From an uncultured delta proteobacterium (GTDB lineage: Bacteria; Desulfobacterota; Desulfuromonadia; Desulfuromonadales; JACZKF01): a DNA stretch of 64,000 nucleotides. The translations under genes and the position numbers were made by a program. The notes beneath the pieces were generated by a model, which did not search any database, was not told the DNA's origin, and was given only the letters and a program-made list of their open reading frames with translations. Positions 1 to 43,873 of the stretch are shown here, one piece after another. Positions within the stretch are counted from its first letter, which is position 1, and each line of letters begins with the position of its first letter. The DNA lies in the NCBI GenBank assembly GCA_963816395.1, contig CAWFKQ010000005.1:334156-398155 (forward strand), given 5' to 3'.

Positions 1-1709
1 ATGGCCAGCGGGGTGTCGACGAAGATTTCGTAGAATTCCCCCTCGGGCAGCAGCTCGCGCGCCATGCGCCGCTCGCTGCGGAAGGGGGAGATGAAGGAGA
101 CCAGGACAATCAGCCCGGCCTCGACGAAGAGGCGGGAGACTTCGGCGATGCGGCGGATGTTCTCCACCCGGTCGGCGTCGGTGAAGCCGAGGTCGCGGTT
201 CAGGCCGTGGCGGACGTTGTCCCCGTCGAGGATGTAGGTGTGCCTGCCGAGGGAGTGCAGCTTCTTCTCGACCAGGTTGGCGATGGTCGACTTGCCGGCG
301 CCGGAGAGGCCGGTGAACCACAGCACGCAGGGCTTCTGCCCCTTGTGGGCGGCGCGGCTTTCCTTGTGCACGTCGAGGGCCTGCCAGTGGATGTTGGTCG
401 CCCGGCGCAGGGGGAAGTCGATCATCCCGGCGCCGACGGTGGCGTTGCTGAAGCGGTCGATGAGGATGAAGCTGCCGGTGGCCGGGTTCTCCCGGTAGGG
501 ATCGAAGGAGACCGCCTTGCCCAGGGCGAGGTTGCAGACGCCGATCTCGTTGAGTTCGAGGGTCTTGGCCGCCTGGTGCTCGAGGGTGTTGACGTTGACC
601 CGGTACTTGAGATCGCTGACCTGGGCCGAGACGGTGGTGGTGCCGGTCTTGAGCAGGTAGCTGCGCCCGGGCAGCAGCGGCTCCTCGTGCATCCAGACGA
701 CTTTGGCCTCGAACTGGTCGGCATGCGCCGGCCGCGCCGCCGGGTCGGCCAGCAGGTCGCCGCGGCTGATGTCGATCTCGTCCGTCAGCGTCAGGGTGAC
801 CGCCTGGCCGGCCACCGCCTCCGGCAGGTCGCCGTCCAGGGTGACGATCCTCGCGACCCGGCTCGTCTGCCCCGAGGCCGGCACGACGATCTCATCGCCG
901 ACGCGGATCGTCCCCGAGGCGATGGTGCCGGCGAAGCCGCGGAAGTCGAGATTGGGCCGGTTGACCCACTGCACGGGCATGCGGAAGGGCTTCTCCCGCA
1001 TCTCCTCGGCGACCTCGACACTCTCCAGGTAGTCCATCAGGGTCGGCCCCTGGTACCAGGGCATATTGTCGCCGTGGCCGATGATATTGTCCCCCTGCAG
1101 GGCGGAGAGGGGGATGGCGGCGATCTCTTCGAACCCCAGGGCGGCGGCGAAGGCTGCGTACTCCCGGCGGATCTGCTCGAAGCGCTCGGCAGCGTAGCCG
1201 ACCAGGTCCATCTTGTTGACCGCCAGCACCACCTTTTTGATCCCCACCAGCGAGACCAGGTAGCTGTGGCGCCGGGTCTGGGTCAGAACCCCCTTGCGGG
1301 CGTCGATGAGGATGACCGCCACCTGCGCGGTGGAGGCGCCGGTGACCATGTTGCGGGTGTACTGCTCGTGGCCGGGGGTGTCGGCGACGATGAACTTGCG
1401 CTTGTCGGTGGAGAAGAAGCGGTAGGCGACGTCGATGGTGATCCCCTGCTCGCGCTCGGCCTGCAGCCCGTCGAGCAGCAGGGCGTAATCGATGGCCTCC
1501 CCTTGCGTGCCGCAGCGCTTGCTGTCGGCTTCCAGCGCCGCCAGCTGGTCCTCGAAGATCATCTTCGAATCCCACAACAGCCGCCCGATCAGGGTGCTCT
1601 TGCCGTCATCGACGCTGCCGCAGGTGATGAAGCGCAGCATCGACTTTTCTTCCTGCGATTTCAGGTAGGCGTGGATGTCGGAGGCTATGAGTTCGGATTG
1701 GTGGGACAT
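1..1709 (-). CDS. cysNC: Bifunctional sulfate adenylyltransferase subunit 1 / adenylylsulfate (APS) kinase CysNC; C-terminus runs off the left window edge
   Basis: Own translation of the minus strand from ATG at 1709: [11 protein letters not shown].., GTPase motifs GSVDDGKST and DTPGHEQY, then APS-kinase P-loop GLSGAGKST (about 290-320). The frame is open to base 1, so the ORF track (needs a stop) omits it; 207..1712 + is its antisense shadow. Confidence 0.9.
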
Positions 1710-1721
1710 TGAAAAACTCCG

Positions 1722-1829
1722 TTTCGCGGTACGCGGTTCGCGGGACGCGAAGGTCAAAAGCGGCAATCAAAGGCGCGGGACGCGAAAGGGTTTTGACTTC
1801 CTCGTACCGCGTCCCTCGTACCGCGCCCC
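1722..1829. repeat. GC-rich heptad-periodic palindromic intergenic element (GGGACGCG...AAGGTCAAA / TTTGAC...CGCGTCCC family), fills the cysD-cysNC spacer
   Basis: tttcgcg gtacgcg gttcgcg ggacgcg aaggtcaaaag ... gggacgcgaaagggttttgacttc ctcgtac cgcgtcc ctcgtac cgcgccc; period-7 arms that are roughly reverse-complementary. Shares its core with 2766, 4623, 8515 and 10271. Confidence 0.8.
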
Positions 1830-1835
1830 TGCTTT

Positions 1836-2743
1836 TCAGAAATACCCTTCCTGTTTCTTCTTCTCCATGCTCCCCGCCTGATCGTGGTCGATCAGCCGTC
1901 CCTGGCGCTCGCTGGTGCGGGTGAGCAGCATCTCCTGGATGATCTCCGGCAGGGTGGCGGCGGTCGATTCGACGGCGGCGGTCAGCGGGTAGCAGCCGAG
2001 GGTGCGAAAGCGCACCGATTTCATACTGCACCTGCTCGCCGGGCTTGAGCTGGAGCCGCTCGTCGTCGACCAGGATCAGCATGCCGTCGCGCTCGACCAC
2101 CGGCCGCACCTTGGCGTAGTAGAGCGGCACGATGGGGATCTGCTCGCGGGTGATGTACTGCCAGATGTCGAGCTCGGTCCAGTTGGACAGGGGAAAGGCG
2201 CGGATGCTCTCGCCGGGCTTGACCCGGGCGTTGTACAGGTTCCACAGCTCGGGGCGCTGGCTCTTGGGGTCCCAGCGGTGGCTGGCGGTGCGGAAGGAGA
2301 AGATGCGCTCCTTGGCCCGGCTCTTCTCCTCGTCGCGGCGCGCCCCGCCGAAGGCGGCGTCGAACTTGTACTTGTCCAGCGCCTGCTTGAGCCCCTCGGT
2401 CTTCATCACGTCGGTGTACAGGGCGCTGCCGTGGGTGAAGGGGTCGATCCCCTGGCGCACCCCTTCCTGGTTGGTGTGCAGCAAGCAGCTCGAAGCCGTG
2501 CTCGCGCGCCATGCGGTCGCGGAATTCAATCATCTCCCGGAACTTCCAGGTGGTGTCGACGTGCAGCAGGGGAAAGGGGATCTTCCCCGGGTAGAAGGCC
2601 TTGCGCGCCAGGTGCAGCATGACCGAGGAGTCCTTGCCGATGGAGTAGAGCATCACCGGCTTTTCGAACTCGGCGGCCACCTCGCGCAGGATGTGGATGC
2701 TTTCGGCCTCGAGCTGGCGCAGGTGGGTCAGGGTTTTCGGCAT
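1836..2743 (-). CDS. cysD: Sulfate adenylyltransferase subunit 2 CysD, split by two apparent frameshifts in this sequence
   Basis: Three track ORFs read as one CysD: 2743->~2490 [58 protein letters not shown]; ~2489->~2027 [40 protein letters not shown]; 2024->1836 [20 protein letters not shown]. Frame changes near 2487 and 2026. Confidence 0.9.
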
Positions 2744-2765
2744 AAGTTCACTTTCTGTTTGAAAT

Positions 2766-2833
2766 CCGGGACGCGGTACGCGGTGCGCGGTACGCGGAAA
2801 GCCTTTGAACTTCGCATCCCGCGTCCGCCGCGG
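2766..2833. repeat. GC-rich heptad-periodic palindromic intergenic element, fills the permease-cysD spacer
   Basis: ccgggacgcg gtacgcg gtgcgcg gtacgcg gaaagcctttgaacttcgcatcccgcgtccgccgcgg; GGGACGCG on the left and CGCGTCC on the right. Confidence 0.75.
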
Positions 2834-2840
2834 TTTTCCC

Positions 2841-4613
2841 CTAAAACTTCCACACCAACGGGATCACTACCAGCGAAACTACCATAAAAAGGATGTTCAG
2901 AGGAATACCGATGCGCAGAAAATCCCGGAAGCGGTAGCCGCCGGGACCGTAGACCATGAGATTGGTCTGGTAGCCGATGGGGGTGGAGAAGCTGGCCGAG
3001 GCGGCGATCGCCACCGCCACGGCGAAGGGTTTGGGATCGAGGCCGGCCTGCGCGGCGGCGGCCACCGCGATGGGGAAGACCAGGGCGGCGGCGGCGTTGT
3101 TGGTGATGACCTCGGTCAGGATGGTGGTGACCAGATAGACGGCCGCCAGCAGCCCGACCGGCCCCACCCCGCGCACGATCTCGATGAGATGCCCGGCGAT
3201 GAAGGCCGCGGCGCCCGTTTTCTCCAGCGCCCGGCTGATACCGAGGGAAGCGGCGATGACGATGAGCACATTCAGCTCGAGCGAGCGCCGCGCTTCAACC
3301 ACGGTCACCGTGCGGGTGAAGAGGAGCACCAGCGCCGCCAGGATGGCGGCTTCCAGGATATCCAGGACGCCCGTCGCCGCCAGCCCCACCATGAGGAGGA
3401 TCGAGAGCAGGGAGATCACGGATTTCCGGCGATTGACCAGCGGCACGTCGCTGACCTTGGAGATCATGTAGAAATCGCGCGACCGCCCCCAGCGCTTGAG
3501 GAAATCGTCCCCGGCCAGAAGCAGGAGGGTGTCGCCCGGATGCAGCTGCAGCTGGCCGATCGGCGTCCGCAGCCGCTCGCCATGCCGGTGCACCGCCAGC
3601 ACGACGGCATCGTACTGGCCCCGGAAGTTGCCCTCCTTGATGGTTTTTCCCAGCATGGGGAAAGAGCGCGAGACGACCGCTTCGATGACCCGTCCCTTGC
3701 CGCTGCGGCGCAGCTCCCGGTAGAAGTGGCGGCCGTGGCCGGGTTCCAGGCCCGGGATCTTCTGCAGCTGGAGGATCGCTTCCACCAGCCCGCTGAACAC
3801 CAGGCGGTCGCCGGCATGCAGGGGATCGGTCGGCCGGACCGGGATCAGGCTGTCGCCGTTGCGCACGATCTCGCCCAGAAACAACTTGTCGAGATTACGC
3901 AGGCCGGCCGCCTCGACCGTTTTCCCCGCCAGCGGGCTGCCGTCGGGAACCCGCATCTCGATCAGGTATTCGCGGCCGCTCTCTACCAGCGTTTCCGCCA
4001 GGTCTTTCCTGGCCGGCAGCAGCCGGTGCCCCCAGAAGAGCAGGTACAGGGTCCCCGCCACGGCGCAGGGCAGACCGACGTAGGCCAGCTCGAACATGCT
4101 GAAGGAAAGCCCGAGGGGCTGCAACAGGCCGTTCACGACCAGATTGGTGGAGGTGCCGATCAGGGTGCAGACACCGCCGAAAATGGAGGCATACGACAGC
4201 GGGATGAGGAATTTGGAGGGGGAGAACCCCTTCTTCAGCGCCCACTCGCGGAGGGTCGGGGTGAACATGGCGACGATCGGGGTGTTGTTGAGGAAGGCGG
4301 ACAGGCCAATGACGGGAGCCATCATCTTCAGCAGGCTGCGGCGCAACCCCCGGCCGTCGCCCATCGCCCGGTTGGCCAGCATCTCCAGGATTCCGGAGGA
4401 CTGGGCGGCATAGGCAACGATAAAGAGGATGCCGACCGTCAGCATCCCCTGGTTGGAGAATCCGCCCAGCGCCTCCTGCGGCTGGAGGATGCCGCCGATC
4501 ATCAGAATCCCCAGGGCGGCGAAGACGATGACATCGGGCGCCAGGATCTCGGCCACCAGGGCGGCGAGCATCAGGCCGACGATGATCAGGGTGAAGATTG
4601 CATCGAATGACAT
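2841..4613 (-). CDS. SLC13/DASS-type anion permease with two central TrkA-C-like domains (possible sulfate/anion uptake, by context)
   Basis: Intact 590-aa ORF. Multi-TM halves (..[15 protein letters not shown].., ..[21 protein letters not shown]..) flank soluble segments (..[23 protein letters not shown].., ..[23 protein letters not shown]..). Lies adjacent to cysD/cysNC. Confidence 0.75.
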
Positions 4614-4622
4614 GGCAAAAAA

Positions 4623-4832
4623 CCCGGGACGCGGCTTGCGGTTCGCGGTTCGCGGAAAGCTTAAGGGCCGGGACGCGGCTTGCGGTTCGCGGTTCGCGGA
4701 AAGCTTAAGGGCCGGGACGCGGCTTGCGGTTCGCGGTTCGCGGAAAGCTTAAGGGCCGGGAGGCGGTTTGCGGTTTGCGGTTCGCGGAAAGCTTTTGACC
4801 TTCGCGGCCCGCGTCCCGCGCACCGCGTTCCG
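4623..4832. repeat. Tandem array: three identical 44-bp units plus a divergent terminal unit that closes into the family hairpin
   Basis: Unit gggacgcggcttgcggttcgcggttcgcggaaagcttaagggcc starts at 4626, 4670 and 4714 (all identical). A fourth unit at 4758 diverges and ends ..gaaagcttttgaccttcgcggcccgcgtcccgcg. Each unit is itself 6 heptads + 2 nt. Units abut with no spacers. Confidence 0.9.
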
Positions 4833-4840
4833 ATTTTTAT

Positions 4841-5188
4841 CTATCCCGGCGGCCAGCCCATTTCCCGGCCGCCGAGGAGGTGAAAGTGCAGATGCCAGAC
4901 GGCCTGTCCGCCTCCCTCGTTGCAGTTGTTGACCACCCGGAAGCCTTCGGCGGCGAAGTCGAGATCGTGCGCCAGCTTGCCGGCGACCTGGAAAATGTGG
5001 CCGACCAGGGCGTTGTCGGCGGTGGTCAGGTCGAGGGTGGTGCGGATGTGCTTGCGGGGGATGAGCAGGTAATGGTGCGGGGCCTGCGGGTTGACATCCT
5101 CCAGGGCCACCACCTGATCGTCCTCATAGACGACCCGGGCCGGGATCTCCCCGTTCAGAATTTTACAAAAGATACAGCTGTCCGGCAT
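4841..5188 (-). CDS. HIT (histidine triad) family nucleotide hydrolase/transferase
   Basis: Internal ATG at 5188 gives MPDSCIFCKILNGEIPARVVYEDD.. ending ..VWHLHFHLLGG (HxHxHxx triad). Confidence 0.85.
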   Translation of the reverse strand: MPDSCIFCKILNGEIPARVVYEDDQVVALEDVNPQAPHHYLLIPRKHIRTTLDLTTADNALVGHIFQVAGKLAHDLDFAAEGFRVVNNCNEGGGQAVWHLHFHLLGGREMGWPPG

Positions 5189-7377
5189 CTTCGCTCCTTT
5201 CTTCCGCCTTGGCGGACGCTCCGCTTCTGACCTCTTCCAGGGGGACCACATGCCAGCGGTCGCGGGCCGCCCGCCGGGCCAGGTTCTCGTCGTGGGTGAA
5301 GAGGATGATCTGATGCTCCGCACCGAGCCGCTCCAGGGCCTTGAGGGTCTCCGCCAGCCGCAGCCGGTCCAGGTTGACCAGGGGATCGTCGAGGAAGAGC
5401 GGCAGATGCCGTCCCTGCGACAGGTGCCGGGTCAGGGCCAGGCGCACCGCCAGATAGATTCCGTCCACCGTGCCGCGACTGAAATGCTCGGCCGGCTGCC
5501 AGCCTCCGGCCCGGGTCGGCAACTGCAGGGAGAAATCCTCGCCCAGGCGGATGCCGTCGTAACGGCCGTGCGTGGTCATCTGCAGATAATGGCCGATTTC
5601 GGCGGCGAAGTGGTCCAGGTAGGTCCGGCGGAACTCGTCCACCGCCCCGGCGAGCAGATCGAAGGCGACGGCCAGGGCATCCTTGCGCCGGACCAGGCGC
5701 TCCTCCCTCTCCTTGAGCCGCTCCCCCTCCTCCTCGATTTCCTCCAGGTGCCCCAACTCTCCCTGCAGAGCCGCTTCCTGCCGGGTGAGCTCGAGCAGCG
5801 TCTGCTCCCGCTGACGCAGACTCTCGCCGAGAGCCGCCAGCTTCTCTTCGGCCTCCGGCAGTGCCTCGGGGGGGAGCAGGTTGGCTACGGGGGGACGGTC
5901 CCGCTCGCGCCGCTCATCCAGCACCGCCAGCTCGCGGGTCAACTGCGCCTTCTCGCCGGAGAGCTCCGCCGATTTCTCCAGTACCTGCAGGGCGCTCGCC
6001 ACCTCCCGCAGGCGCGCCGAAAGCTCCCGATGCCGGCCGAGATTCTTCTGCATCCGGGCGATTTCCACCGCCGACGGGGAGATGCCCAGACGCTTGAAAC
6101 GTTCGTCCAGCGCCGCCAGGCGCGCCTGCGCCTCCTCCCGGCGATTCTCCAGCACCTGCGCCCGGCCCTGGATCCGCCCGCGCTCGCTCCCCGCCTGGAA
6201 GACCCGCCAGAGATGCACCCCCCAGACGCCGGCAGCCACCGCCCCGGCGCCGGCGAGAGACCGACAGCAGCCAGGCGGGACGCAGCCAGGCGAGCAGGCC
6301 GCCGGCCAGGAGCAGGGCGGCGGTAAGTCCCGCCCACGGCTTCCAGGAGGGATTGGCGTGCGCCAGCAGTTCCTGGCGCATGGCCGCCGCCTCCCCCTGC
6401 AGACCGATCAGCTCTTTGCGGATCTCTTCGGCCTCCACCAGCAGCGCCGTCAGTTCCTCGGGCACCTGCCGGGGCAGGCCGGTGCGGGCCAGTTCCTTCT
6501 CCAGGTCCTGCCGCTGCTGTTCCAGTTCCCCCACCTTCTCCGACTGGCGGTTGACCCGGGAGAAGTCCTTGGCCAGAGATTCCTTCTTCTCCTCCAGATG
6601 CCATTGCCGGCGCACCCAGGCGAGGTAGCGCTCGCCCTTGCCGAATTCGCCCCGGTCGGCCTCGATCTCCTGCTGCAGGCCGGCGATCCGGGCGCGCAGC
6701 GCTGCCAGCTCCTGCACCCCTTCCCGGGCGGCAAACCAGCGCCGCTCCAGCTCGCCCATGCGCCGGCGGACCTCGTCGAGTTCACGGTCGCGCGTCTTGT
6801 CCTTCCCCCAGGGGTTCTCCCGGGTGAGGGCGAAATAGTCTTCCTGCAGCGACTGCAGGACCCGGTCGTAATCGACCTCGATGAAGCCGGAAAGGAGAGC
6901 CTTGATCTTCCCCGCCAGCCCCTGCCCGGAGATCTCCAGGCTCCCCTGGCCGAAGAAGAGGGAAGCGCGGAAGATCTCCTCCTCGGTGATGCCGAGCAGC
7001 CGCTGCAGCTGTTCGAGGTACTCGCTGCGTTCCGAGGAGCGCCCCTGGGGGGCGGCCTTTCCCTCGAAAGTATACAGGGTCTGGTAAAGGTCGTCGTGCT
7101 CGCTCAGACGCACCCGGTCGGTCAGGATATCCCGCTCCAGGCGGACGGTTCCCCCCGGTTTTTCCAGGACGAGAGCCGCCTCGCAGCTCCCCTGCCGGCC
7201 CCAGGGCCGGAAACGCTCCTTGTTGCGGGAGCCGAAGAGGACCGCCGGGATCGCCTCCATCAGGGTCGACTTGCCGGCCTCGTTGGGACCGAGAACCAGG
7301 TTCATCCCCCGGCGGAACTCGAGGGTCCGCTCGGCGAAGCGGCCGAAGTGCCGCAGCTCCAGGGTGCGCAGAATCAT
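5163..7377 (-). CDS. sbcC: SbcC/YhaN-like ATPase subunit of an SbcCD-type nuclease, one apparent frameshift
   Basis: ATG 7377 (ATGA overlap with the sbcD stop): MILRTLELRHFGRF..GPNEAGKSTLMEAI (Walker A), long coiled coil, C-terminal ..LPLFLDDPLVNLD..ILFTHDE. Frame switches from ORF 5914..7620 to ORF 5163..6239 near 6250. Confidence 0.8.
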
Positions 7378-8506
7378 GCGGCGCCTCCACCGAACAGCCG
7401 GAAGCGCACCAGCGCTTCGCGGAACGCCTCCTCGATGACCGGCCGCTGCGCCGGCGGGCGCCTCCGCCAGCAGACGCCGGGCGCGCCGGACGAAAACGCC
7501 GCGCACCGTCTGTTCCTGCTCCAGGCGGGCGGCGAAGGCACTGTCGAAAAGCCGCGTGCGGTCCTCCAGTTCCAGATGGAAGAAGGCATCGCGGCAGCGG
7601 GCGCAGCAGGGCAGACACATCGAGCGGCGCCTCGACGATGCCGGTCAGCGCGAGGCGCAGCAGCAGGTCGGGACGCCCTTTGGCGACAATCGCCTCGGCG
7701 ACCCGCCCGGCATCCTCGCAGCCGGAGAGATCAAGGCTCTCGGCCGCCAGTTCCTGGCTGTTGACCGTCACTTTTTCCACTGTCGCCCGCCCCGCCGCCA
7801 GGGTGACCAGGGCGGCGTAGCGGGGGCCGTTCTCACCGAAGCGCTTCCCCTCCGGCGAGCCGGGATAGCAGGCCCAGACCCGCCCGGCCTCCTCCAGGAG
7901 CTCGAAACCGTGGTAATGCCCCAGGGCCACGTAGTCCAGTCCCCATTCGCGCAGGGTGGCGAGGGAGAAAGGCAGATCCTTCTTTCGGTATTCCCACTCC
8001 GGACTTCCCTGGCGGGAGCCGTGCAGCAGGCCGATATGGATCCCTTCCGGGGCGCGCCGGGCCATGCCGGCCAGGGCGTCGGCAGAGGCGAAGGAGCGGT
8101 AGGCGAAGCCGTAGAGGAACACCTGCTCTCCCCCCACCGTGAGCATCGCCGGGGCCTCGACGGTCGGCGCGGCGAGCACCACCGCCCCCGGGAAATCGGC
8201 CTGCCGATACACCGAATCGGCACTCACCAGATTGTCATGGGTGCCGGGGAGAAGCACCGGCACAATTCCCCGGTCGGCCAGGCGTTTGAGGCCGGCCTGC
8301 ACCCGACCGACCAGGGCGGGTTCGGGGCGGGGGTTGTCGAACAGATCGCCGGCGACCAGAAACAATTGGCACTCGCTCTTGATCGCCAGAGTCAGCAGGC
8401 GCTCGAAGGTCTTGAGGAAGGCGTCCCGACGCGCCCCTTCCTGCCCGTCAAGAGCAGGGAAAGGGGCACCCAGGTGCAGATCGGCGGTATGCAGAAATCG
8501 GATCAT
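7374..8506 (-). CDS. sbcD: SbcD-like Mre11-family nuclease subunit, two apparent frameshifts in the C-terminal part
   Basis: MIRFLHTADLHLGAP..VAGDLFD..LPGTHDN..GHYH phosphoesterase motifs. The tail continues in two other frames (..RCRDAFFHLELEDRTRLF.. then ..RPVIEEAFREALVRFRLFGGGAA); changes near 7615 and 7455. Confidence 0.85.
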
Positions 8507-8514
8507 AAATCACT

Positions 8515-8601
8515 CGGTACGCGGTACGCGAAAGGCGTAAAACCAGGGACGCGGTACGCGAAGGTCAAAGATTTTCGCGAACCGCAAACCGCGTCCCGCG
8601 C
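8515..8601. repeat. GC-rich heptad-periodic palindromic intergenic element, fills the methylase-sbcD spacer
   Basis: cggtacgcggtacgcgaaaggcgtaaaaccagggacgcggtacgcgaaggtcaaagattttcgcgaaccgcaaaccgcgtcccgcgc; GGGACGCGGTACGCG pairs imperfectly with CGCGAACCGCAAACCGCGTCCC. Confidence 0.8.
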
Positions 8602-8611
8602 TTTATCTGCT

Positions 8612-9376
8612 TCATTCCTGAAACTGCCAGATGGTCTCCCGGCGGAAGTCCCACCAGCTGGCGTCGATGCGGGTAGACAGGGTTTCGCCGGCGATCACCA
8701 GGGTGAGGGCCGGCCGTTTCTTCGGGCCGCCGAGTTCGAAGAAATCCCGGCCGCCGGCTTTCTCCACGATATCGTCGAGGGTGCCGGTCAACACCTCCTG
8801 CCCGGGCAGGCAGAGCCGGTGCAGGATGGCGATCGGCACGCTGCGGCCATAGCCGGCGCGCAGTTCCGCCACCAGTTCCGGCAGCGGGAGATCGTTCATG
8901 TAAAGAAGCAGCGTCACCCCGGGCGCCGCCAGCTCGCGCAGGGCCGGGGCACCGGGCTCTTCCGCCAGCAGGCGCGGCGAGGCGATGATCGCCCGGTTGC
9001 AGGCCCCGGGAAGGTCGAGGGTTTTCTTCAGCCAGGCCGCGGCGGCATTGGCCGTCCCCACCCCGGGGACCGCCACCGCCCGCTCCCCCAGGGGATCGAT
9101 CAGCGCCTGAAAAGGGGAATAGAAGGTGAGGTCGCCGGGGACCAGGAAAGCCACGTCCCCCTCCCGCAGCCGCGCCTCCACCTGCTCCAGCAGCTCCGCG
9201 AAATAGAAATCGAAGGGGACCAGGATTTCCTTGCCGGCGAGCAGGGCGGCGAAGGTCGTCTCGTAGGGCGTAGGGGCGAAGACCGTCCGGCAGCCGGCCA
9301 GCAGCCGGGCCCCCTTGAGGGTCAGGAGGTCGGGGTCGCCGGGTCCGGCGCCGATGAAGTAGACGCGGCTACTCAT
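8612..9376 (-). CDS. Tetrapyrrole (corrin/porphyrin) methylase superfamily protein, substrate not assignable
   Basis: From ATG 9376: MSSRVYFIGAGPGDPDLLTLKGARLL.. (GxGxGD SAM motif); CbiF/CobM-like length and pattern; intact. Confidence 0.7.
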   Translation of the reverse strand: MSSRVYFIGAGPGDPDLLTLKGARLLAGCRTVFAPTPYETTFAALLAGKEILVPFDFYFAELLEQVEARLREGDVAFLVPGDLTFYSPFQALIDPLGERAVAVPGVGTANAAAAWLKKTLDLPGACNRAIIASPRLLAEEPGAPALRELAAPGVTLLLYMNDLPLPELVAELRAGYGRSVPIAILHRLCLPGQEVLTGTLDDIVEKAGGRDFFELGGPKKRPALTLVIAGETLSTRIDASWWDFRRETIWQFQE

Positions 9377-9391
9377 CCGCACTCCACAACC

Positions 9392-9468
9392 AGCTGCAAG
9401 CTGCAAGCTGCAAGCTAAGAGCTTAAGTTTGAATTTTTTTTCTAGCTTGCAGCTTGCAGCTTGTAGCT
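9392..9468. repeat. Long hairpin built from (AGCTGCA)n heptads: 25-bp arms, 24/25 complementary, 27-nt A/T-rich loop
   Basis: Left arm 9392..9416 agctgcaagctgcaagctgcaagct. Right arm 9444..9468 agcttgcagcttgcagcttgtagct. Loop aagagcttaagtttgaatttttttttc-like, containing CTTAAG. Confidence 0.9.
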
Positions 9469-10204
9469 TCTTTTCGCATCCAGATGAGAAACTCCCTGTT
9501 CCCTTTCGGGCCGAGGATGGGGCTTTCGGTGACTCCCAGCACCGCGCAGCCGAGTTCCGCGGCCAGCTCCCGGACCTTGTTCACCACCCGGGCGTGCTTC
9601 TCCGCTCTCCCGCACCACGCCCCCCTTGCCGACTTCCCCGCGTCCCACCTCGAACTGCGGCTTGATCAGGGCGAGCACCTCGGCATCGGCGGCCAGCAGC
9701 GCCAGGGTCGGCGGCAGGACCTTGTCGAGGGAGATGAACGAGGCGTCGATCACCGCCAGGTCCGGACGTTCGGGGAGACGGTCGGCCGTGAGGTCGCGGA
9801 TGTTGGTGCGCTCCAGGTTGACCACCCGCGGGTCCTCGCGCAGCTTCCAGGCGAGTTGACCGTAGCCGACGTCGACCGCATAGACCCGCGCCGCCCCCCG
9901 CTGCAGCAGACAATCGGTAAAACCGCCGGTGGAGGCGCCGACGTCGATGGCAACCCGCCCGCCTACCGCCACCGCGAATTCGTCCAGTGCCCGCTCCAGC
10001 TTGAGGCCGCCGCGCGACACGTAAGCGGATATCCTCTCCCTTCAGGCGCAGAGCACAGTCGGCCTCGACCTGCGCCCCCGCCTTGTCCACCGCGTGCTCG
10101 CCGACCACCACCTTGCCGGCCAGAATCAGGGCGCGCGCCCGTTCCCGGGACTGAGCCAGTCCGCGTTCCACCAGCAGCTTGTCGAGGCGTTCTTTTCTGG
10201 GCAT
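9423..10204 (-). CDS. tlyA: TlyA-family rRNA 2-prime-O-methyltransferase (S4 + FtsJ domains), two apparent frameshifts
   Basis: [34 protein letters not shown] (S4) .. [30 protein letters not shown] (SAM site) .. [15 protein letters not shown]. Pieces lie in three frames (changes near 10025 and 9610). In the corrected frame the stop is TAA 9423..9425, inside the hairpin loop. Confidence 0.85.
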
Positions 10205-10270
10205 GGGCGGGGACAGGAAAGCGCAAGGCGGTTGAAATTCCATCTTTCAGAAGCGGCCCAAGAGTAACAC

Positions 10271-10377
10271 AGGGGGAAGCGGGGAGCAAAGGGGAAACCG
10301 AGGGGCGAGGGGCGAGGGACGCGGTACGCGAAAATATTTTGACCTTCGCGCACCGCGCACCGCGCACCGCGTCCCGG
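10271..10377. repeat. GC-rich heptad-periodic palindromic intergenic element, fills the methyltransferase-tlyA spacer
   Basis: gaggggc gaggggc gagggac gcggtac gcgaaaatattttgaccttcg cgcaccg cgcaccg cgcaccg cgtcccgg; same GGGACGCGGTACGCG / TTTTGACCTTCGCG / CGCGTCCC core. Confidence 0.8.
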
Positions 10378-10382
10378 ACCTT

Positions 10383-11092
10383 CTATTCCGCCTCCAGCGC
10401 GATCCCCACCGCCGTGTAGGGATAGCCGTGGAAACGGCGCATCTGCGGGTGAGGTGCGGCCAGTCGGCAGTGAGGTCGAGGGGACCGGTGAGGCGGAAAC
10501 CGGGGGCGGCCAGGACGATGCGGCGCAGCTGATCTTCGTCGAAAACGTTCCAGTCGACGCGGAAGGGTTCGCCCGGCCCCTGGTACCACATCTCCTCCCC
10601 CGCCTGCCGGCAGAAATCGGTGGTCAGCAGGAGACGACCGCCGGGGCGCAGGACCCGGTGCAGCTCCGCCAGCGCCAGCGGCATCCGCTCCCAGGGCAGA
10701 TGCTCGAGGACCGAGATGCAGAAGACGGCGGCAAAACGGCCGGAGGCGAAAGGCAGGGCGGCCAGATCGCCGCGGGCGTAATTGACCCGCACCCCGTGCA
10801 GGCGGTCGAGCCGTCCGGGAAGGTCCAGGTCGCAGGCGCTCACCGGGCAGCCGCAAGCGGCCAGATAGACCGGGAAGATGGAGGCGCCGCAGCCGGCATC
10901 GAGCACCTGGTCGCCAGGGCTGAGCGCCGCCTGCTCCAGTGCCCAGGGGTACTCCCAGCGTTTGCTGGGGTGCAGGTAGGAGACCGTTTCCCGCGCCGCC
11001 ATCGCGTCCATGGCCGCCGCGGTCCGCCGAAAAGGGGGAGACTCCAGCTCTGCCAGGTCCAGCACCCGACTGGGGGCCCTGTTTTCCCTCAT
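10383..11092 (-). CDS. Class I SAM-dependent methyltransferase, one apparent frameshift near the C-terminus; no stop separates it from the upstream GT9 frame
   Basis: MRENRAPSRVLDLAELE..VLDAGCGASIFPVYLAACG (motif I)..VFCISVLEHLP..LRPGGRLLLTTD. The last ~20 aa (..QMRRFHGYPYTAVGIALEAE) are in the 10383..11249 frame (change near 10455). Confidence 0.75.
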
Positions 11093-12199
11093 GATTTTTC
11101 TCCCGACCACAGGCTGTACCCCCTGGATACACCTCATTCTCGGCAACGCGTATGCCAATACTCCGGCGACTGCATCCCAGACCTGCGCCAGATCCACCTC
11201 GTCGATGCAGCTGCGTTTCCCGGCCAGACAACGCCCTTCCATCACGCATTTGGGCGGTCCGAAAGCCCTGGTCTTGCGCCAGGTGCAGCCGTCCCGGCCG
11301 CCGCAGGCGATCGCCGGCACCTGGCCGGGAAGATAGATCTGCGGGCTGGTGGGACCGAAAAGGGCGACCAGCGGCGTTCCCACCGCCGCCGCCAGGTGCA
11401 TGAGTCCGGTATCGTGGCCGAGGAACAGCCGGCAGCGTGCCAGCAGGGCAGCCACCCGCCGCAGGTGCAGGGGACCGACCGCGACCGCACGCTCCGGCCG
11501 GCGCAGCCGCCGCCGTATATCCTCACCGAACTGCCGCTGCGGGCCGGCGAACAGGAGGAGGGACTCGCCGTTTTCGATCAGCCGGTCGGCGAGAGCGGCG
11601 AAGCGGGCCACCGGCCAGCGTTTGAGCGGCGAGGAAGCGACCGGCGAGAACCCCACCGGCCGCCCCGCCAGGCCGTGGGTGCGCAGAAAGCCGGCAGCAA
11701 AAGAAATTTCCGCCGCCGCCAGTTCGAGGCGGGGAACGGCGGCGGCCGGGATGCTGATCCCCCAGCCGGCCTGGACGGCGGCGTTGATCGCCGCCAGTCC
11801 GTCCAGGCCGGTGGCCAGCGCCCGATCCTGCAGGTCGCTGCCGGCATCGAGGATAGTCGCCCGGCTGTCCCAGATCGCCGCCCCGGCCCCCATGACCGCA
11901 TGCGAAGGATCGAGGACCAGGTCGAATGCCTCCGCGGCGAACCATTCCCGGATGGCGGTCCTGATCGTCGGCGTGCCGTAATCCCCCCAGTGGCGAAAGC
12001 CCCAGTCCTGCACGCAGGACAACCGGTCGACCCGCCGATCGCCCGCCAGCAGTTCCAGGGCCGGCCGCGCGCCGAGAGCCGTGATCCGCGCCGCCGGAGC
12101 GGCGCTCCGCAAGACCCCCAGGACCGGCAGCTCCATCACCAGATCGCCGATACCGTAGCGCAGACAGAGCAGGATCTTGCGGGACGCGGAAAGGTTCAT
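11093..12199 (-). CDS. Glycosyltransferase family 9 (heptosyltransferase-like) protein or domain
   Basis: N-terminal part of the 650-aa ORF 10247..12199: MNLSASRKILLCLRYGIGDLVMELPVL.. and ..LFLGHDTGLMHLAAAVGTPLVALFGPTSP.. GT9 signature. Confidence 0.75.
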
Positions 12200-12254
12200 C
12201 AGGGAGGAAAATGCCGGAGCAAATGGGTTCCGGATCGCTGTGGCTGCCGCAGCC

Positions 12255-13460
12255 TCATCGCCGTTCCTCCGTGAACGAGGCCGGCAGTTCCGCTGCCTGC
12301 CGTCGCCCGCGATGCCGCAGCCAGCAATAACCAGGGATGGCGGCCAGGCCGCCGGCGATTTCCACCAGGATCAGTTCGAGAGGGAAATCCCGCGCTCGGC
12401 GCGTTAGCTGCCCGAAAAGCCGCTCACGCACCTGATAGGGGAAAAACCAGTTGGCGATCTCGGCCAGCGCCCGGCGCCGGTAGAGGGGATCGTCGCAGGC
12501 GACCTTCAGCAGGTAGGCGATGTAACCCCATCCCCACAGATAGAGACGCCGGCGCAGGGCGGCGTAGTCGCTGACGTGCCGATGGCGGACGGCCGCCGCC
12601 GGCTCGTAGGCCAGCTCGAAGCCGGCGCGCAGCACCCGGGAGAAGATCTCGATATCCTCGGCGGTGGGGAGGACTTCATCGAACGCGCCGATCACGGTAA
12701 ACAGCGAACGGCGGAATGCCATGTTGCCGCCGCTGCCGAACATCCAGGCCTGCAGCGGCCATGCAGGACATTGGGCAATGCCGGACAGGCGGCTGTGAAT
12801 GCGCCGCACGAATCCCCGGTTGAAGCCGCCGCGCTGTTCCAGCCATTCCTGCGCCGAGGTGTCGAGGGCGGCGGGGAGCACCGGCCCGGTGCAGCATCCG
12901 AGCCGCGGCCGAGCAAGGAAATTGCCGGCGAGGGCCCGCAGCCAGCAGGCGACCGGCAGGCAATCGTCATCGACGAAGGCCACGATCTCCCCTCGCGCCT
13001 CGGCCAGACCGCGGTTGCGGGCATAACGGACGCCGGGACGCGTCTCAGCGACATAACGGCATTGCGGGTACCGTTCCCGGACCAGGGCGGCGGCCGAGAG
13101 CCCGGGGTCGTTGTCCACCACGACGATTTCGAAACGGGGATGGTCCTGGTCCTTCAGGGCCTGCAGGCAGCGGTCCAGTTCGTCGGGGCGGCGGCAAGTG
13201 CAGACGACTACCGAAGCCAGGGGGAAAGTGCCCGGCACCGGCAACGGACACCCACCCTGCCCCTCCCCTTCCCCCAGCGTCCGACCGAGGGCGGCGGCCA
13301 GTTCCAGAGAGTCGATTCGACCAGAACTATTGCGGATCTCCCGGGTGCCGAGCGGTACGCCGCGACTCCAGAAGATGAGCAGAAGGCGGTCGCACTCGCC
13401 GATCTCGATGGTATCGGGCAACGGTTCGGCGAGGTCGAGGTCCAGGATGCGGGTGCTCAT
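12255..13460 (-). CDS. Glycosyltransferase family 2
   Basis: Intact 401 aa; ..ASVVVCTCRRPDELDRCLQALKDQDHPRFEIVVVDNDP.. and ..IVAFVDDDCLP.. (GT-A fold, DxD). Confidence 0.8.
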   Translation of the reverse strand: MSTRILDLDLAEPLPDTIEIGECDRLLLIFWSRGVPLGTREIRNSSGRIDSLELAAALGRTLGEGEGQGGCPLPVPGTFPLASVVVCTCRRPDELDRCLQALKDQDHPRFEIVVVDNDPGLSAAALVRERYPQCRYVAETRPGVRYARNRGLAEARGEIVAFVDDDCLPVACWLRALAGNFLARPRLGCCTGPVLPAALDTSAQEWLEQRGGFNRGFVRRIHSRLSGIAQCPAWPLQAWMFGSGGNMAFRRSLFTVIGAFDEVLPTAEDIEIFSRVLRAGFELAYEPAAAVRHRHVSDYAALRRRLYLWGWGYIAYLLKVACDDPLYRRRALAEIANWFFPYQVRERLFGQLTRRARDFPLELILVEIAGGLAAIPGYCWLRHRGRRQAAELPASFTEERR

Positions 13461-13469
13461 CGGTGCCGG

Positions 13470-14273
13470 TCAGGGGCGGCGGCAGCCGCCGCCGGTCGCG
13501 GCCTCGAATTCCGCCCGGTTCCAGGAGGCGCTGCAGGAGGGGTTCTCGGGATCGGGCTCGCAGAGGTAAACCTCGCGCCCCGGGCGGGCGGTCACCCGCA
13601 TGCCGCTCGAGCGCAGCATCGCTTCGGCCCCGGCATGGTTGGCGGCCCACCAGTTCGTCGGGTCATCGGCCAGCCGGTTTTCGATGAAGGCCATTTTCGG
13701 CCAACCGGGCTCGTTCATGGCGGAGCGTTCGAAAATCCCCAGGTCGGCAGTCTCGCAGACCTCCTCGCCCGGCATGGTCAGGGTCTGAAAGACCAGCAGG
13801 CGGCGCACCAGCCGGGAGACGATATCGAGTCCGAGCAGCGGGTAGCGCAGGTGGTAAAAGACCCCGAGAAAAAGGATCAGGTCGAAACTCTCCCGACAGG
13901 CGGCCAGTTCATAGACCTGCATCTGCCGAAACTCGATGCGGTTCTCCAGGCCGTACCGGCCGGCAGCCCAGCGAGCCTGAGCCAGGTAGTGGGGATTGCT
14001 GTCGATGGCGGTGACCCGGGCACCGCGCCGGGCCAGCTCGAAGCTGTAGAACCCGGCATTGCAGCCGATATCCAGGGCCTCCCAGCCATGCAGGTCAAGC
14101 GGCAGGTGGCAGGCGATCTCCTGCCATTTATAGGTGGGGAAATCGCCCAGCACATGATCGGGCGCGGTCTGACTGCCGTCCGGCAGGTGCAGGTTGTGGA
14201 ACCACGGCCGCAGGTCGCTGATGACCTGCTGAAAATCCGCACCGGCGGTACGGCTCTCGGATGATGATTGCAT
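13470..14273 (-). CDS. SAM-dependent methyltransferase (CmoB/TIGR04290-like pattern, from memory)
   Basis: Intact 267 aa; ..ALDIGCNAGFYSFELARRGARVTAIDSNP.. motif I; ..LILFLGVFYHLRYP.. Confidence 0.7.
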   Translation of the reverse strand: MQSSSESRTAGADFQQVISDLRPWFHNLHLPDGSQTAPDHVLGDFPTYKWQEIACHLPLDLHGWEALDIGCNAGFYSFELARRGARVTAIDSNPHYLAQARWAAGRYGLENRIEFRQMQVYELAACRESFDLILFLGVFYHLRYPLLGLDIVSRLVRRLLVFQTLTMPGEEVCETADLGIFERSAMNEPGWPKMAFIENRLADDPTNWWAANHAGAEAMLRSSGMRVTARPGREVYLCEPDPENPSCSASWNRAEFEAATGGGCRRP

Positions 14274-14290
14274 CGCGTGTCCTATGAGAT

Positions 14291-14379
14291 CAGTTATCAG
14301 CTGTCAGTTATCAGCTGCAAGCTAGAGCCACGAGCAGGTTCAAGGTTCAAGCTGCGAACTGCTAGCTGTGAGCTGATGG
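14291..14379. repeat. Heptad-periodic imperfect hairpin (CAGTTAT/CAGCTGT heptads), fills the phosphatase-methyltransferase spacer
   Basis: cagttat cagctgt cagttat cagctgc aagctag ... gctgcga actgcta gctgtga gctgatg gctag; arms partly complementary (atcagctgtcag vs ctgtgagctgat). Confidence 0.65.
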
Positions 14380-14992
14380 CTAGGCTTGGATCGGCAACCG
14401 GTCGCCGGTGTGGTTAAGGCAGAGCAGCCGCGGGCCGCTGTCGCGGATATCGAGGATGCTGACGGAGGCCAGACCGATCTCGAAGCGCAGCATCAGGTCC
14501 AGGGGGAAGCCGGCGTAATGGGCAATGGCCGTTTTGATCGGATCACCGTGGCTGAACAGCGCCAGGATGGACTTGGGGAATTCCCGGCGCATTGCTTCGA
14601 TCTCCGCCACCATGCGCGCCTGCACCTCGACCATCAGCTCGCCGCCGGGAATACGGGTGCCGCTGCGGAAGGTGTTGAACTGCCGCCAGCGGGGAATTTC
14701 CCCCAGCTCCTCGAAGGACATGCCGGCCCAGTCACCGAAGTCGACCTCGTGCAGCCCCTCACGGATCTCCACCTGCAGCCCGTGCCGCCGAGCCAGCGGC
14801 GCAGCGGTCTCCCGCGTCCGCTCCAGGGGACTGCTGAAAATAGCCGGCCAATGGCACCTCGGCGAGCCGCTCGGCAAGCCGTTCGGCCTGTTCGCTGCCC
14901 TGCTGGTTCAGGTGGATGCCGGCCGTCCGGCCGACGATCGTCCGGCCGACGGCATCGTTATGCCCATGGCGGATCAACAGGAAGAGGGGCAT
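14380..14992 (-). CDS. Histidine phosphatase family protein (phosphoglycerate-mutase-like), one apparent frameshift
   Basis: ATG 14992: MPLFLLIRHGHNDAV (RHG motif) .. then after a change near 14848 ..IFSSPLERTRETAAPLA..LFSHGDPIK.. Confidence 0.8.
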
Positions 14993-15924
14993 AAAATCTT
15001 CTCCGCAGGCGCTGCCCCGGCTGGCGGGACATCCGGCTCTGCCTCCGGCAGGACATAGCGGCGCACCACTTCCGCAGCGAACCAGGCGAACTCCCGCAAG
15101 TCGAGGGGCGGACTGGTATGGCAGGCGCGCCGGCCCCGCGAGGGCGGGGTGAAGCAGAGGGTCAGGGTGAGGTCGAACTCGCTCAACGCCGCCATCTGCC
15201 GATCGAACCAGGCCAGGGCGTTCGGCCGGTGCCAGTCGGCCCAACTGATGCCGGTACGCAGCTTTTTCACCCCCAGCCGCCGCAGCCATTGCACCGCGTC
15301 GGCCAGCCGGTGGTCCTCGAAATGAAACCACTGGCAAATCCCCATGGCCGGGTCGAAATGCCGCAGGGCCGGCTTCGGGGTGCCGTCGGCACGCACCAGC
15401 CCCATGTAGAAGTGCCGATAATAGGCGCTTCCCTCACTCTCCTTGTGCCGGGTGGTGGCGCCCCAGGCCGGCGGCAGGTCGAAGAGGCTGTACCAGAAGA
15501 TACGCTCGGTGCGCCCGAGCAGCAGCTCGGTGGTGCGCTGCAGGCCGAACACCTGGACTTCGTCGGCGCCGAAAGTGGAGACGCCCACCTCGGTGACCCA
15601 CACCGGCAGATGGGTGACCGCCTCGATCTCGGCGAGCTTGTCCGGCCATTCGTCAATCCGCCAGTGGTTCCAGTCCAGAGGAAAACCATGCACCGCCACC
15701 GCGTCCAGACGCTCGAGCAGACCGTAGCTGGCCAGCAGGCGGATAAACCGCTCGTCGATGGGGGAAATGCCGCCGAGCACCAGGTGCACTCCGGGGCATA
15801 ACTCCCGCACCGCCTCGGCCGCCAGACTCGTCATCTGACTGAATTCCCGCCATTCCTGATCCAGCTGGAAATCCCAGTGGGACAGGTTGTTCGGTTCATT
15901 CCAGAACTTGATTGCTTCGATCAT
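14974..15924 (-). CDS. Clan GH-A type (TIM-barrel) glycoside hydrolase family protein
   Basis: Intact 316 aa; MIEAIKFWNEPNN.. and ..VWVTEVGVSTFG.. (NEP / TEVG catalytic-type motifs). Confidence 0.6.
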   Translation of the reverse strand: MIEAIKFWNEPNNLSHWDFQLDQEWREFSQMTSLAAEAVRELCPGVHLVLGGISPIDERFIRLLASYGLLERLDAVAVHGFPLDWNHWRIDEWPDKLAEIEAVTHLPVWVTEVGVSTFGADEVQVFGLQRTTELLLGRTERIFWYSLFDLPPAWGATTRHKESEGSAYYRHFYMGLVRADGTPKPALRHFDPAMGICQWFHFEDHRLADAVQWLRRLGVKKLRTGISWADWHRPNALAWFDRQMAALSEFDLTLTLCFTPPSRGRRACHTSPPLDLREFAWFAAEVVRRYVLPEAEPDVPPAGAAPAEKILCPSSC

Positions 15925-18063: not shown

Positions 18064-18291
18064 TTTGGCTGCAGCGGCAACCGCCGGAGCAGCACAGCGA
18101 CGACAGACTTGTGATATCGGAGTTTAATTAATTAATATTTATATCGCAGAACCCGGACTTTGGCAAATGAGAGCGGGCCGGCCCCTGGCGAGGCGGTTCC
18201 CTGGTCCCAGGACAGCACTGGCATCCTGGGCCGTTGCAGTTATGCTTGCAGGAAAAGGACGGCCCGCCTCGGCGGGCAATGGAGGCACACA

Positions 18292-19255: not shown

Positions 19256-19284
19256 ACAGGACGGCTCAGTGGGGGAGAAATCGG

Positions 19285-20190: not shown

Positions 20191-20196
20191 AGAAAC

Positions 20197-20275
20197 CAGT
20201 TAGAGCTTTCAGTTATCAGTTAGCAGTTTTCAGTTTTTTCAGCCTTCCACTGATAGCTGCTAACTGAAAACTTGT
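20197..20275. repeat. Heptad-periodic imperfect hairpin (CAGTTAT/CAGTTAG/CAGTTTT heptads), fills the arnA-arnD spacer
   Basis: ccagtta gagcttt cagttat cagttag cagtttt cagtttt ttcagccttccactgatagctgctaactgaaaac; tcagttagcag pairs with ctgctaactga. Confidence 0.7.
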
Positions 20276-23243: not shown

Positions 23244-23261
23244 ATGGGCGTCAATCCTGTA

Positions 23262-43783: not shown

Positions 43784-43803
43784 GTTCTCTCCTTGGCAAA
43801 TCG

Positions 43804-43873
43804 AAGGTATCAGGTGCCAGGTATCAGGAGCCAGGATTTCATCAGGAATTTTTGTACCTGCTACCTGTTTCCT
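43804..43873. repeat. Heptad-periodic imperfect hairpin (AGGTATC/AGGTGCC heptads), fills the leuA-leuC spacer
   Basis: aggtatc aggtgcc aggtatc aggagcc aggattt catcaggaatttttgt acctgct acctgtt tcc; caggtatcagg pairs with cctgctacctg (10/11). Confidence 0.65.

Follow-up and report, generated by a model that had tools for sequence, protein, structure and literature searches.

Palindromic elements with heptanucleotide arms in five intergenic spacers of an uncultured Desulfuromonadales bacterium

Introduction

Heptanucleotides are reported to be the commonest unit of long simple-sequence repeats in prokaryotes (Mrazek 2007, as cited in PMC4679880). Here, we describe a GC-rich palindromic element, designated E, which has arms of tandem heptads and occupies five intergenic spacers (E1-E5; E4 is located at 8515..8601) in DNA of an uncultured delta proteobacterium of the Desulfuromonadales (contig CAWFKQ010000005.1, positions 334,156 to 398,155). 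The window, here and below, is this whole 64-kb stretch, to which the copy counts, clustering and spacing figures for the E family refer. The five spacers had been pointed out in a first-pass annotation based on the letters of the DNA. The E repeat strings were found in no paper in the literature searched. E is a new family of a kind that is already described, namely heptanucleotide arrays that often form convergent pairs.

In Geobacter metallireducens, which belongs to the same bacterial order as the E host, a single spacer can hold paired arrays of 7-, 8- or 9-nt units, one on each strand (Aklujkar et al. 2009, PMC2700814). These arrays were classified as "putative global regulator binding sites" of classes 1-3, of which class 3 consists of 5 x MTYCTGA, and one pair (Gmet_I301A/B) places ATTCTGA and CTCCTGA arrays between moaA and mosC (PMC2700814). 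The E elements share this arrangement of opposite-strand arrays between consecutive genes and, like the G. metallireducens families, are multicopy and lineage-specific. The Gmet_H4 family (4 x GGGACCG, 49 copies; PMC2700814) has a unit that differs from the E heptad GGGACGC at two adjacent positions (CG vs GC), but it comprises direct repeats only and is often intragenic, unlike E. Neither the E heptad GGTNCGC nor the centre AAGGTCAAA..TTT is among the published G. metallireducens families, which come from BLAST searches of one genome, without a hairpin model. In G. bemidjiensis, multicopy sequences are found in 12% of intergenic regions (PMC2996986).

Heptamer repeats with the units GGGAATC and GGGGAYT have been described in Xanthomonas and Nostoc, respectively (Rehm et al. 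2015, PMC4692102). The Xanthomonas repeats are 89-93% intergenic, lie mostly between co-directional open reading frames (ORFs) at a mean distance of 28 nt from the upstream ORF, and include 70-75 convergent pairs able to form stem-loops; their positions are conserved between species, and their lengths vary (PMC4692102). E is likewise intergenic, located between co-directional genes near the upstream ORF, and arranged in convergent pairs. However, E has a conserved non-repetitive centre, and none has been described for these heptamer repeats. The Xanthomonas and Nostoc units with G3-4 tracts form G-quadruplexes in vitro, whereas E units, with a single GGG, cannot; a G-quadruplex was rejected as an explanation for E on the basis of the one G3 run per arm.

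TAACTGA repeats are intergenic, forward-oriented and placed a few nucleotides from start codons in marine Beggiatoaceae, Thiocystis, and some Cyanobacteria and Bacteroidetes, where 169 direct-repeat sets were counted vs one indirect repeat (MacGregor 2015, PMC4679880). The E unit CGCGTAC/CGCGAAC is unrelated to TAACTGA, and forward TAACTGA units are absent from E, whereas they are present in two other hairpins of the window (H7 and H8, described below).

Repetitive extragenic palindromic (REP) elements have been proposed to act in mRNA 3'-end protection and in the translation of the upstream gene. A REP typically combines a conserved 5' tetranucleotide such as GTAG with an imperfect palindrome of 20-40 nt, numbers tens to hundreds of copies in a genome, and flanks a RAYT gene. 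REP and bacterial interspersed mosaic elements (BIMEs), REPINs and their RAYT transposases are treated in two papers (PMC2817692, PMC8266576). E resembles REP elements in being a short extragenic palindrome between co-directional genes, near stop codons, in both orientations and sometimes clustered. In contrast to REP elements, E copies start with GGGACGCG, their flanks share a loose AA(A/G)NCC and no GTAG, their arms are tandem heptads that vary by whole units, and no RAYT is associated with them (as judged by tblastn in the window; the RAYT of one relative, L132, has a different flanking repeat). E clusters also differ from BIMEs in consisting of direct half-element duplications instead of alternating orientations. 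The present locus adds to these systems several heptad families in one window, presence and absence among close relatives, and orthologous spacers that keep their architecture and change their heptad.

An arm-centre-arm unit in five spacers

Inspection of the sequence found one GC-rich palindromic element in all five spacers, and tandem repeat finding (TRF), an alignment and a covariance model bore out the first-pass claim that they carry the same element. Read on the strand that contains AAGGTCAAA, the unit comprises a G-rich arm, GGGACGC(GGTNCGC)1-3; an asymmetric centre of 15-16 nt, AAGGTCAAA-N3-4-TTTY; and a C-rich arm, (CGCGNAC)1-3 CGCGTCC C, which terminates in CGCGTCCC. The heptad build had been recognized in the first pass as (G/T)(A/T)CGCGG, but this consensus is too restricted for the six more varied units that were seen (GGGACGC, GGTACGC, GGTGCGC, GGTTCGC, GGTTTGC and GGCTTGC). 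The central motif and the fixed ends that had been reported apply to most of the loci. The centre is exact in four of the five (AAGGTCAAA in E1 and E4, TTTGACCTT in E3 and E5), whereas E2 has the variant TTTGAACTT, and E1 contains a second, degenerate centre (TTTTGACTTCC) besides the exact one. The terminal motifs GGGACGCG / CGCGTCCC are internal in E1, and the right end of E2 is degenerate (CGCGTCCG).

Period-7 arrays were detected by TRF at each of the five loci, together with a 44-nt unit repeated 3.9 times in E3 (4624-4794, 97% match), and inverted-repeat finder matches support paired arms in E1, E4 and E5 (I2, I17; I11; I25). The motif GGGACGCG occurs 16 times in the window, compared with 7.1+/-2.6 times in shuffled sequences, and 12 of these occurrences fall in the five E spacers, which total 734 nt (1.15% of the window). 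An alignment of six sequences (the five window copies and one copy from a relative) has 21 invariant columns. The covariance model, a scan that the first-pass annotation had suggested, matches just the five E loci in the window and nothing in the other 54 kb; it also found three more copies in two relatives (see below). All five copies lie inside 8.7 kb, for which a post hoc calculation gives a uniform placement probability of ~0.0015.

E1 (1722..1829) is located in the cysD>cysN spacer, between the cysD stop (1836-1838) and the cysN ATG (1707-1709), and consists of one hairpin and one extra half-element. Its parts are an extra arm (1725-1749), centre A (AAGGTCAAAAGCGG.., 1750-1773), an inner arm (1774-1784), centre B (AAAGGGTTTTGACTTCC, 1785-1801) and a C-rich arm (1802-1829). 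E2 (2768..2833) lies in the SLC13>cysD spacer (stop 2841-2843, ATG 2741-2743) and has a four-heptad G-rich arm (2768-2797), the centre AAAGCCTTTGAACTT (2798-2812) and a short degenerate arm (2813-2833). E3 (4624..4832), in the HIT>SLC13 spacer, contains three identical 44-nt half-elements starting at 4624, 4668 and 4712, followed by a complete hairpin with an arm at 4756-4787, the centre AAAGCTTTTGACCTT at 4788-4802 and a second arm at 4803-4832. On its sense (minus) strand, GGGUUUUUUGCC AUG directly follows the last arm. E4 (8515..8601), in the TP_methylase>sbcD spacer, is inverted as a whole unit relative to E2, E3 and E5. An extra arm (8515-8530) and a linker (8531-8545) are followed by the hairpin, which has arms at 8546-8560 and 8576-8597 and the centre AAGGTCAAAGATTTT at 8561-8575. 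E5 (10300..10375) is situated after an ORF (10383-11249) that has no Pfam match and before tlyA (ATG 10201-10203). It is composed of (GAGGGGC)2 (10300-10315), an arm (10316-10330), the centre AAAATATTTTGACCTT (10331-10346) and a four-heptad arm (10347-10375).

E1 has the centre AAGGTCAAA on both strands: its inner hairpin reads it on the sense (minus) strand, as E2, E3 and E5 do, and its outer half on the opposite strand, as does E4. The arms follow the inverted centre: the arm on the TTT side is CGCGAACCGCAAACCGC both in E3 on the minus strand and in E4 on the plus strand. Therefore, the whole unit was copied in both orientations, and the E copies cannot have formed independently in place. 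We consider it very probable that all five loci derive from a single dispersed palindromic element, which has a core of ~50-80 nt and, in three loci, tandem half-copies. Private tandem variants are found in E5 (GGTGCGC x3) and E3 (GGTTCGC x2 and GGTTTGC x2), and a hairpin can have arms with unequal unit numbers (4 vs 2 in E5, ~2 vs 4 in E2). The extra tandem half-elements of E1, E3 and E4, 1-3 in number and each made of an arm and part of the centre, are always on the side of the downstream gene.

The E copies have predicted folding energies of -34 to -52 kcal/mol, and the folding z scores of most copies are -2.0 to -6.2 (-42.3 kcal/mol and z -2.5 for E4; -50.9 kcal/mol and z -4.3 for E5). The consensus structure of the six-sequence alignment has 18 pairs.

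Other heptad hairpins in the window

At a self-match of at least 16/21, lag 7 gave 139 sub-windows. The remaining lags between 3 and 13 gave 0-17 each, and its harmonic, lag 14, gave 30. Lag 7 is thus the sole strong short periodicity of the window, and the density of lag-7 regions is ~8-10x that in a control set of unrelated GC-rich loci (909 kb; the remaining loci matched by a genome-contig scan with the 15-mer GGGACGCGGTACGCG). The 7-nt periodicity had been taken as peculiar to E; the periodicity is real, but it is shared by four further hairpins of the window, by relatives and by the systems in the literature. These four hairpins (H6-H9) have the same design and are built from other heptads.

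H6 (9391..9469) lies in the tlyA>TP_methylase spacer and pairs (AGCTGCA)n at 9391-9416 with (AGCTTGC)n at 9444-9469, ending 12 nt before the ATG at 9374-9376. Its 3-4 AGCTGCA and three AGCTTGC units form a 27-bp stem with an A8-containing loop (-46.5 kcal/mol, z -4.5). The tlyA frame enters H6 and stops at 9442-9444, so that the stop codon and the ~10 codons before it are provided by H6. H7 (14290..14379) follows a His_Phos_1 gene (stop 14380-14382), precedes a methyltransferase gene (ATG 14271-14273) and has the centre (AGGTTCA)2 at 14336-14351; its arrays read TCAGTTA/TCAGCTG on the plus strand, that is, TAACTGA/CAGCTGA on the sense strand. H8 (20196..20273; z -4.8) is of the same TAACTGA type (sense strand ..CUAACUGAUAACUGAAAGCUCUAACUGG) and ends 6 nt before the ATG at 20188-20190, downstream of an epimerase gene (stop 20278-20280). 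In both H7 and H8, the TAACTGA/CAGCTGA units are 6-15 nt upstream of the start codon, and each has an inverted partner array, in contrast to the mostly direct repeats of the TAACTGA system. The arrays of H7, H8 and one relative (L126) share the TAACTGA unit or its one-base variants CAACTGA and CAGCTGA. They are an occurrence of such units in Desulfuromonadales-like metagenome-assembled genomes (MAGs); Desulfuromonadales are not among the reported carriers.

H9 (43803..43872) separates leuA (stop 43879-43881) from leuC (ATG 43781-43783) and sets (AGGTATC/AGGTGCC/AGGAGCC)n against (ACCTGCT/ACCTGTT). It also holds CTCCTGA, which fits the class-3 consensus MTYCTGA of G. metallireducens. Its stem is a series of ~5-bp helices with 2-nt mismatches between them, and several hairpins of the window are likewise ~5-bp runs split by 2-nt mismatches, in which only the heptad core is complementary. 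H9 is inside a leu operon controlled by a T-box (45601-45836, minus strand).

E shares exact 7-nt tandem units with at least 2-3 copies in each arm, pairable arrays on opposite strands, and intergenic placement between co-directional genes near the upstream 3' end with this broader class of convergent heptanucleotide-array pairs, to which the E family belongs. All nine elements (E1-E5 and H6-H9) are located between minus-strand genes, 1-14 nt past a stop codon, and eight of them end 6-24 nt ahead of the downstream start codon.

Genomic setting

The window has a GC content of 63%, and a run of genes on the minus strand occupies its first 21 kb. Searches against Pfam and for homologues identified cysNC (1-1709), cysD (1836-2743), an SLC13 permease gene (2841-4613), a HIT protein gene (4841-5188), sbcC and sbcD, a tetrapyrrole methylase (TP_methylase) gene (8612-9376) and tlyA (TlyA/FtsJ; 9442-10203), all on the minus strand, with sbcC and sbcD between the HIT and tetrapyrrole methylase genes. 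Further methyltransferase and sugar-modifying genes lie beyond tlyA in the run. These assignments agree with the earlier placement of E between co-directional minus-strand genes, including cysD and cysN.

The E elements start 6-14 nt past the upstream stop codon (7 nt for E5). The downstream ATG follows after 8-12 nt in E1, E3 and E4, as the first-pass annotation had stated in general (about 5-15 nt), but after 24 nt in E2 and 92-112 nt in E5. The claim that the element fills nearly the whole spacer holds only in part, as its share of the spacer length is 46-92%. The Shine-Dalgarno sequence stays outside the E elements, and ~100 nt between E5 and tlyA resembles a promoter region.

Orthologous spacers in relatives

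Nine loci were fetched around the nearest SLC13 homologues (~70% identical); those with names are Desulfuromonadales or Syntrophotaleaceae. The density of lag-7 arrays is 0.29-0.37 per kb in L125, L126, L129 and L132, compared with 0.018 per kb in the controls. L127 has a single lag-7 array, and none was found in L121, L122, L128, L130 and L131 (Trichlorobacter lovleyi).

The three E-like copies identified by the covariance model in L125/L132 are around the same SLC13-cysD-cysNC cluster. Their units are GGGACGN instead of GGTNCGC, and the centre is kept as GAATTCAACGGCCTTT or TTTTGAR. One is located before a DUF218 gene, one right after the DUF218 gene (a hairpin followed by U5), and one starts from the cysNC stop codon. 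The cysD-cysN spacer of L125/L132 contains a hairpin (26 bp, z -5.1) in which (AATTTTG)n pairs with (CAAAATT)n and which has GGAG 3 nt beyond its end, and AATTTTG-type heptads are also present in the SLC13-cysD spacer, which in L129 carries (GCTGACA)n. In the heptad-rich genomes, the SLC13-cysD and cysD-cysN spacers are 97-237 nt long, with arrays or hairpins. In T. lovleyi, by contrast, there is a 1-nt overlap between cysD and cysN, and 28 nt lie between the SLC13 gene and cysD. By comparison with this element-free state, the elements appear to have been inserted between formerly coupled genes.

Beyond these relatives, the genome-contig scan with the 15-mer GGGACGCGGTACGCG, which is too short a query (among the matches listed, most are actinobacteria and other GC-rich taxa), gave real arrays in two matches, L047 (Terriglobales MAG CAZLJE010000056.1; taxonomy via homologues) and L024 (Acidobacteriaceae). 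L047 has four heptad arrays in 8 kb (963-5679): (GGGGCGY)n, (GAATGAA)n, (GTGGTCA/GTGCTCA)n, and a fourth in which the units GGGACGC, GGTACGC, GGGACGC and GGGGCGA are followed by (GGAATAC)n. E-type GC-rich heptad arrays are therefore present in Acidobacteriota too. A metagenome-contig scan with GCGGNNCGCGAAGGTCAAAN{6,7}CGCG gave two matches, neither with an E element.

Several other repeats were seen in the relatives. L125 has a direct array, (GAGTTTT)13, at 17230-17338, with the same unit number in L132. L129 contains a ~66-nt tandem repeat (21635-21776) that is itself made of CAATGAC/AAGGACA heptads. In L126, a 970-nt SLC13-cysD spacer (11780-12750) is filled by a different repeat family with many GGATAA / CGCAGATAAC / TTATCCGCG motifs.

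Origin and possible function

As the best explanation of the whole, to which we assign a probability of roughly 0.45, we propose a dispersed REP-like element with slippage-prone arms and an intercistronic stem-loop function. An arm-centre-arm unit is copied into short spacers in either orientation, as the inverted unit shows. The arms would then gain, lose and homogenize 7-nt units via slipped-strand mispairing, and whole half-elements may duplicate in tandem. The element would be co-transcribed with its operon and fold into a stable stem-loop between the cistrons, reaching from 1-14 nt after the upstream stop usually to 6-24 nt before the downstream start. In this position, the hairpin might serve as a REP/BIME-like barrier protecting the 3' end of the upstream cistron, as a weak or partial terminator, and as a spacer breaking the translational coupling of the flanking genes. 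This functional part is tentative and considerably less secure than the identity of the five copies.

Several observations weigh against this explanation. Only one of the 18 consensus pairs shows a compensatory change, in an alignment of few and too similar sequences. Minus-strand folding, which the first-pass annotation had recommended, does yield stable hairpins, but in eight of the nine window elements folding of the antisense strand is at least as good, and the sense strand folds better in five of eight elements from relatives. There is thus no consistent strand or G.U folding advantage, and therefore nothing points to selection on the sense RNA. A terminator scan of 1-20000 calls none at the E elements, which do not combine a GC stem with a U-tract except in E3 (U6) and the L125 copy at 9821-9868 (U5), where a U-run right after the stem was found by eye. 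With respect to the copying step, no IS element or transposase was seen near the E copies, and comparison of the flanks gave no target-site duplication and no direct repeat beside any E copy. The first-pass annotation had raised such duplications and had called E REP/MITE-like; the REP-like siting stands, whereas the defining REP features are missing (no GTAG, no RAYT in the window), and there is no evidence for a MITE, target-site duplications and a related IS element both being absent. L125 and L132, which are 97.9% identical, have the same unit number in eight of eight arrays, including the 13-unit array; the arrays are therefore not hypervariable, and slippage is not fast. Finally, E copies can be counted only over 64 kb of the source genome. 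A promoter scan made no call at the elements, and Rfam 15 has no match at them that reaches the gathering threshold, its window matches (tmRNA, T-box and pan motif) all being elsewhere.

The main rival is that the elements are a functionless by-product, that is, neutral or slightly deleterious repeats made by a slippage bias of the replication machinery, which survive in spacers only where these tolerate them. The heptads differ freely by locus and genome (CGCGGTA, AGCTGCA, TAACTGA, AGGTATC, AATTTTG, GAGTTTT, CCTAAAA and others), their all-or-none spread among relatives is what a genome-wide mutational bias would give, the folding signal is not strand-specific, and direct-only arrays occur alongside hairpins; polymerase slippage was also the idea of Mrazek, as cited in PMC4679880. 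However, the E copies have in common a non-repetitive 15-nt centre and specific ends, and they are therefore derived from one another and not generated independently. The stability of the arrays between the 97.9% identical strains, the very regular siting 1-14 nt after stop codons, and the higher conservation reported for repeat-bearing than for control spacers (Rehm et al. 2015, PMC4692102) weaken the by-product account further, and we regard it as rather unlikely. A quite different possibility is that the heptad-armed hairpins are a maintained structural class, for which a trans-acting factor recognizes or builds a 7-nt-periodic duplex. The same SLC13-cysD-cysN spacers keep a hairpin or array with the heptads CGCGGTA here, AATTTTG in L125/L132 and GCTGACA in L129, and this retention of architecture under a changing heptad supports the idea; stems often have a 5-bp core with 2 nt per unit unpaired, and TTCAA(A) or TTGAA recurs in the centres. 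Such a factor, perhaps an HUH/RAYT-like enzyme or a protein that binds heptads, would act across both Desulfuromonadales and Acidobacteriota. We give such a maintained class a low probability.

Compared with the REP-like dispersed element that we prefer, three more specific roles seem improbable. In E. coli BIME-1 (RIP/RIB), an IHF site is located between two inverted REPs. By analogy, the E centre between its inverted arrays might be a DNA-level docking site for nucleoid proteins such as IHF/HU, a role that was proposed by Aklujkar for the paired arrays of G. metallireducens (PMC2700814). It would fit the presence of the element in both orientations relative to transcription and the absent sense-strand folding bias, and TCAA-N4-TT, which is the core of the IHF consensus WATCAANNNNTTR, can be read in four of the five E centres. 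This is a weak hint, as the match covers six of nine specified positions with mismatches at the outer ones, and TCAA-N4-TT is shared by common descent, so that the four copies do not count as separate evidence; in the other heptad hairpins the centre is different. The docking site has a small chance of being correct. As a dispersed extragenic palindrome in both orientations, E might also be a true REP moved by a RAYT encoded elsewhere in the genome. L132 encodes a RAYT (1931-2788; NF047646, 85.3 bits vs the curated NCBIfam cut-off of 80) 7 kb from E-like copies, but this gene is bounded by its own perfect 17-nt inverted repeats (GGGGTCAGGTCTTGAAA / TTTCAAGACCTGACCCC) instead of E copies, and as a tblastn query it had no match in the 64-kb window. 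E also lacks a conserved GTAG-like 5' tetranucleotide and, unlike REPs, varies in its arms by whole heptads; mobilization by a RAYT is slightly less credible still. The same low standing applies to a sense-strand cis-regulatory RNA, in which a protein reading 7-nt-spaced motifs would bind the arm adjacent to the ribosome binding site and set downstream translation. One candidate is a HutP-like protein, of a kind that reads NAG triplets lying 7 nt apart. The end of eight of the nine window elements at 6-24 nt before a start codon is compatible with such a reader, as are the forward TAACTGA units just upstream of the starts in H7 and H8, which recall those of Beggiatoaceae (PMC4679880), and the (CAACTGA)12 array of L126 before a gene start; MacGregor proposed an S1-, Csp- or CsrA-type protein for TAACTGA repeats (PMC4679880). 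On the other hand, E is present in either orientation, two copies (E5 and the one at 9821-9868 in L125) are at gene 3' ends far from start codons, and the heptads are wholly different between elements, which makes a single binding protein unlikely.

The L126 array mentioned above is located at 3976-4088, immediately before a Shine-Dalgarno sequence and ATG. The RAYT gene of L132 lies within a toxin-antitoxin island without heptad arrays, and its L125 counterpart (1906-2759) is frameshifted; GGGGTCA is a tandem heptad in L129 too (20108-20192).

Three further candidates were rejected. An integron attC site does not fit the flanking core genes, and R/L boxes are absent. A three-frame stop insulator fits the TAACTGA arrays, but the E arms have no stop codons. 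An assembly artefact is contradicted by L125 and L132, which were assembled independently from different samples and have the same arrays; arrays are also present in the L126 contig, which has a different assembly naming style.

The E family with its non-repetitive centre, the four sister hairpins, and the heptad-rich and heptad-free relatives that share the gene cluster form a comparative set, for which the overlapping cysD/cysN of T. lovleyi is the element-free reference state. The set makes cistron insulation, operon stoichiometry and arm evolution testable. For annotation, the elements account for several long "empty" spacers, for the end of tlyA inside H6 and for some spurious ORFs; that translated elements yield recurring spurious peptides, as noted in the first pass, is trivially true.

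Other features of the window

A non-heptad palindrome at 23259-23329 has 24-nt arms that are 96% complementary, a 23-nt loop and GGGCGCAGCAAGCGGCGCCCC on both strands. It is present as a single copy in the window, flanked by a DegT-like gene fragment and a GT2 gene, and stops ~15 nt short of the ATG. Several genes are split across frames or truncated, namely cysD (1836-2743), sbcC (5163-7620), tlyA (9442-10203) and a 130-aa C-terminal DegT fragment (23355-23747), which suggests assembly indel errors or pseudogenes. These splits have no bearing on the repeats, which recur in independent assemblies of relatives. A tmRNA (34708-35063, 236.6 bits) and a pan motif (41017-41103; 39.7 bits, slightly over its gathering score of 36.2) are ordinary minus-strand features.

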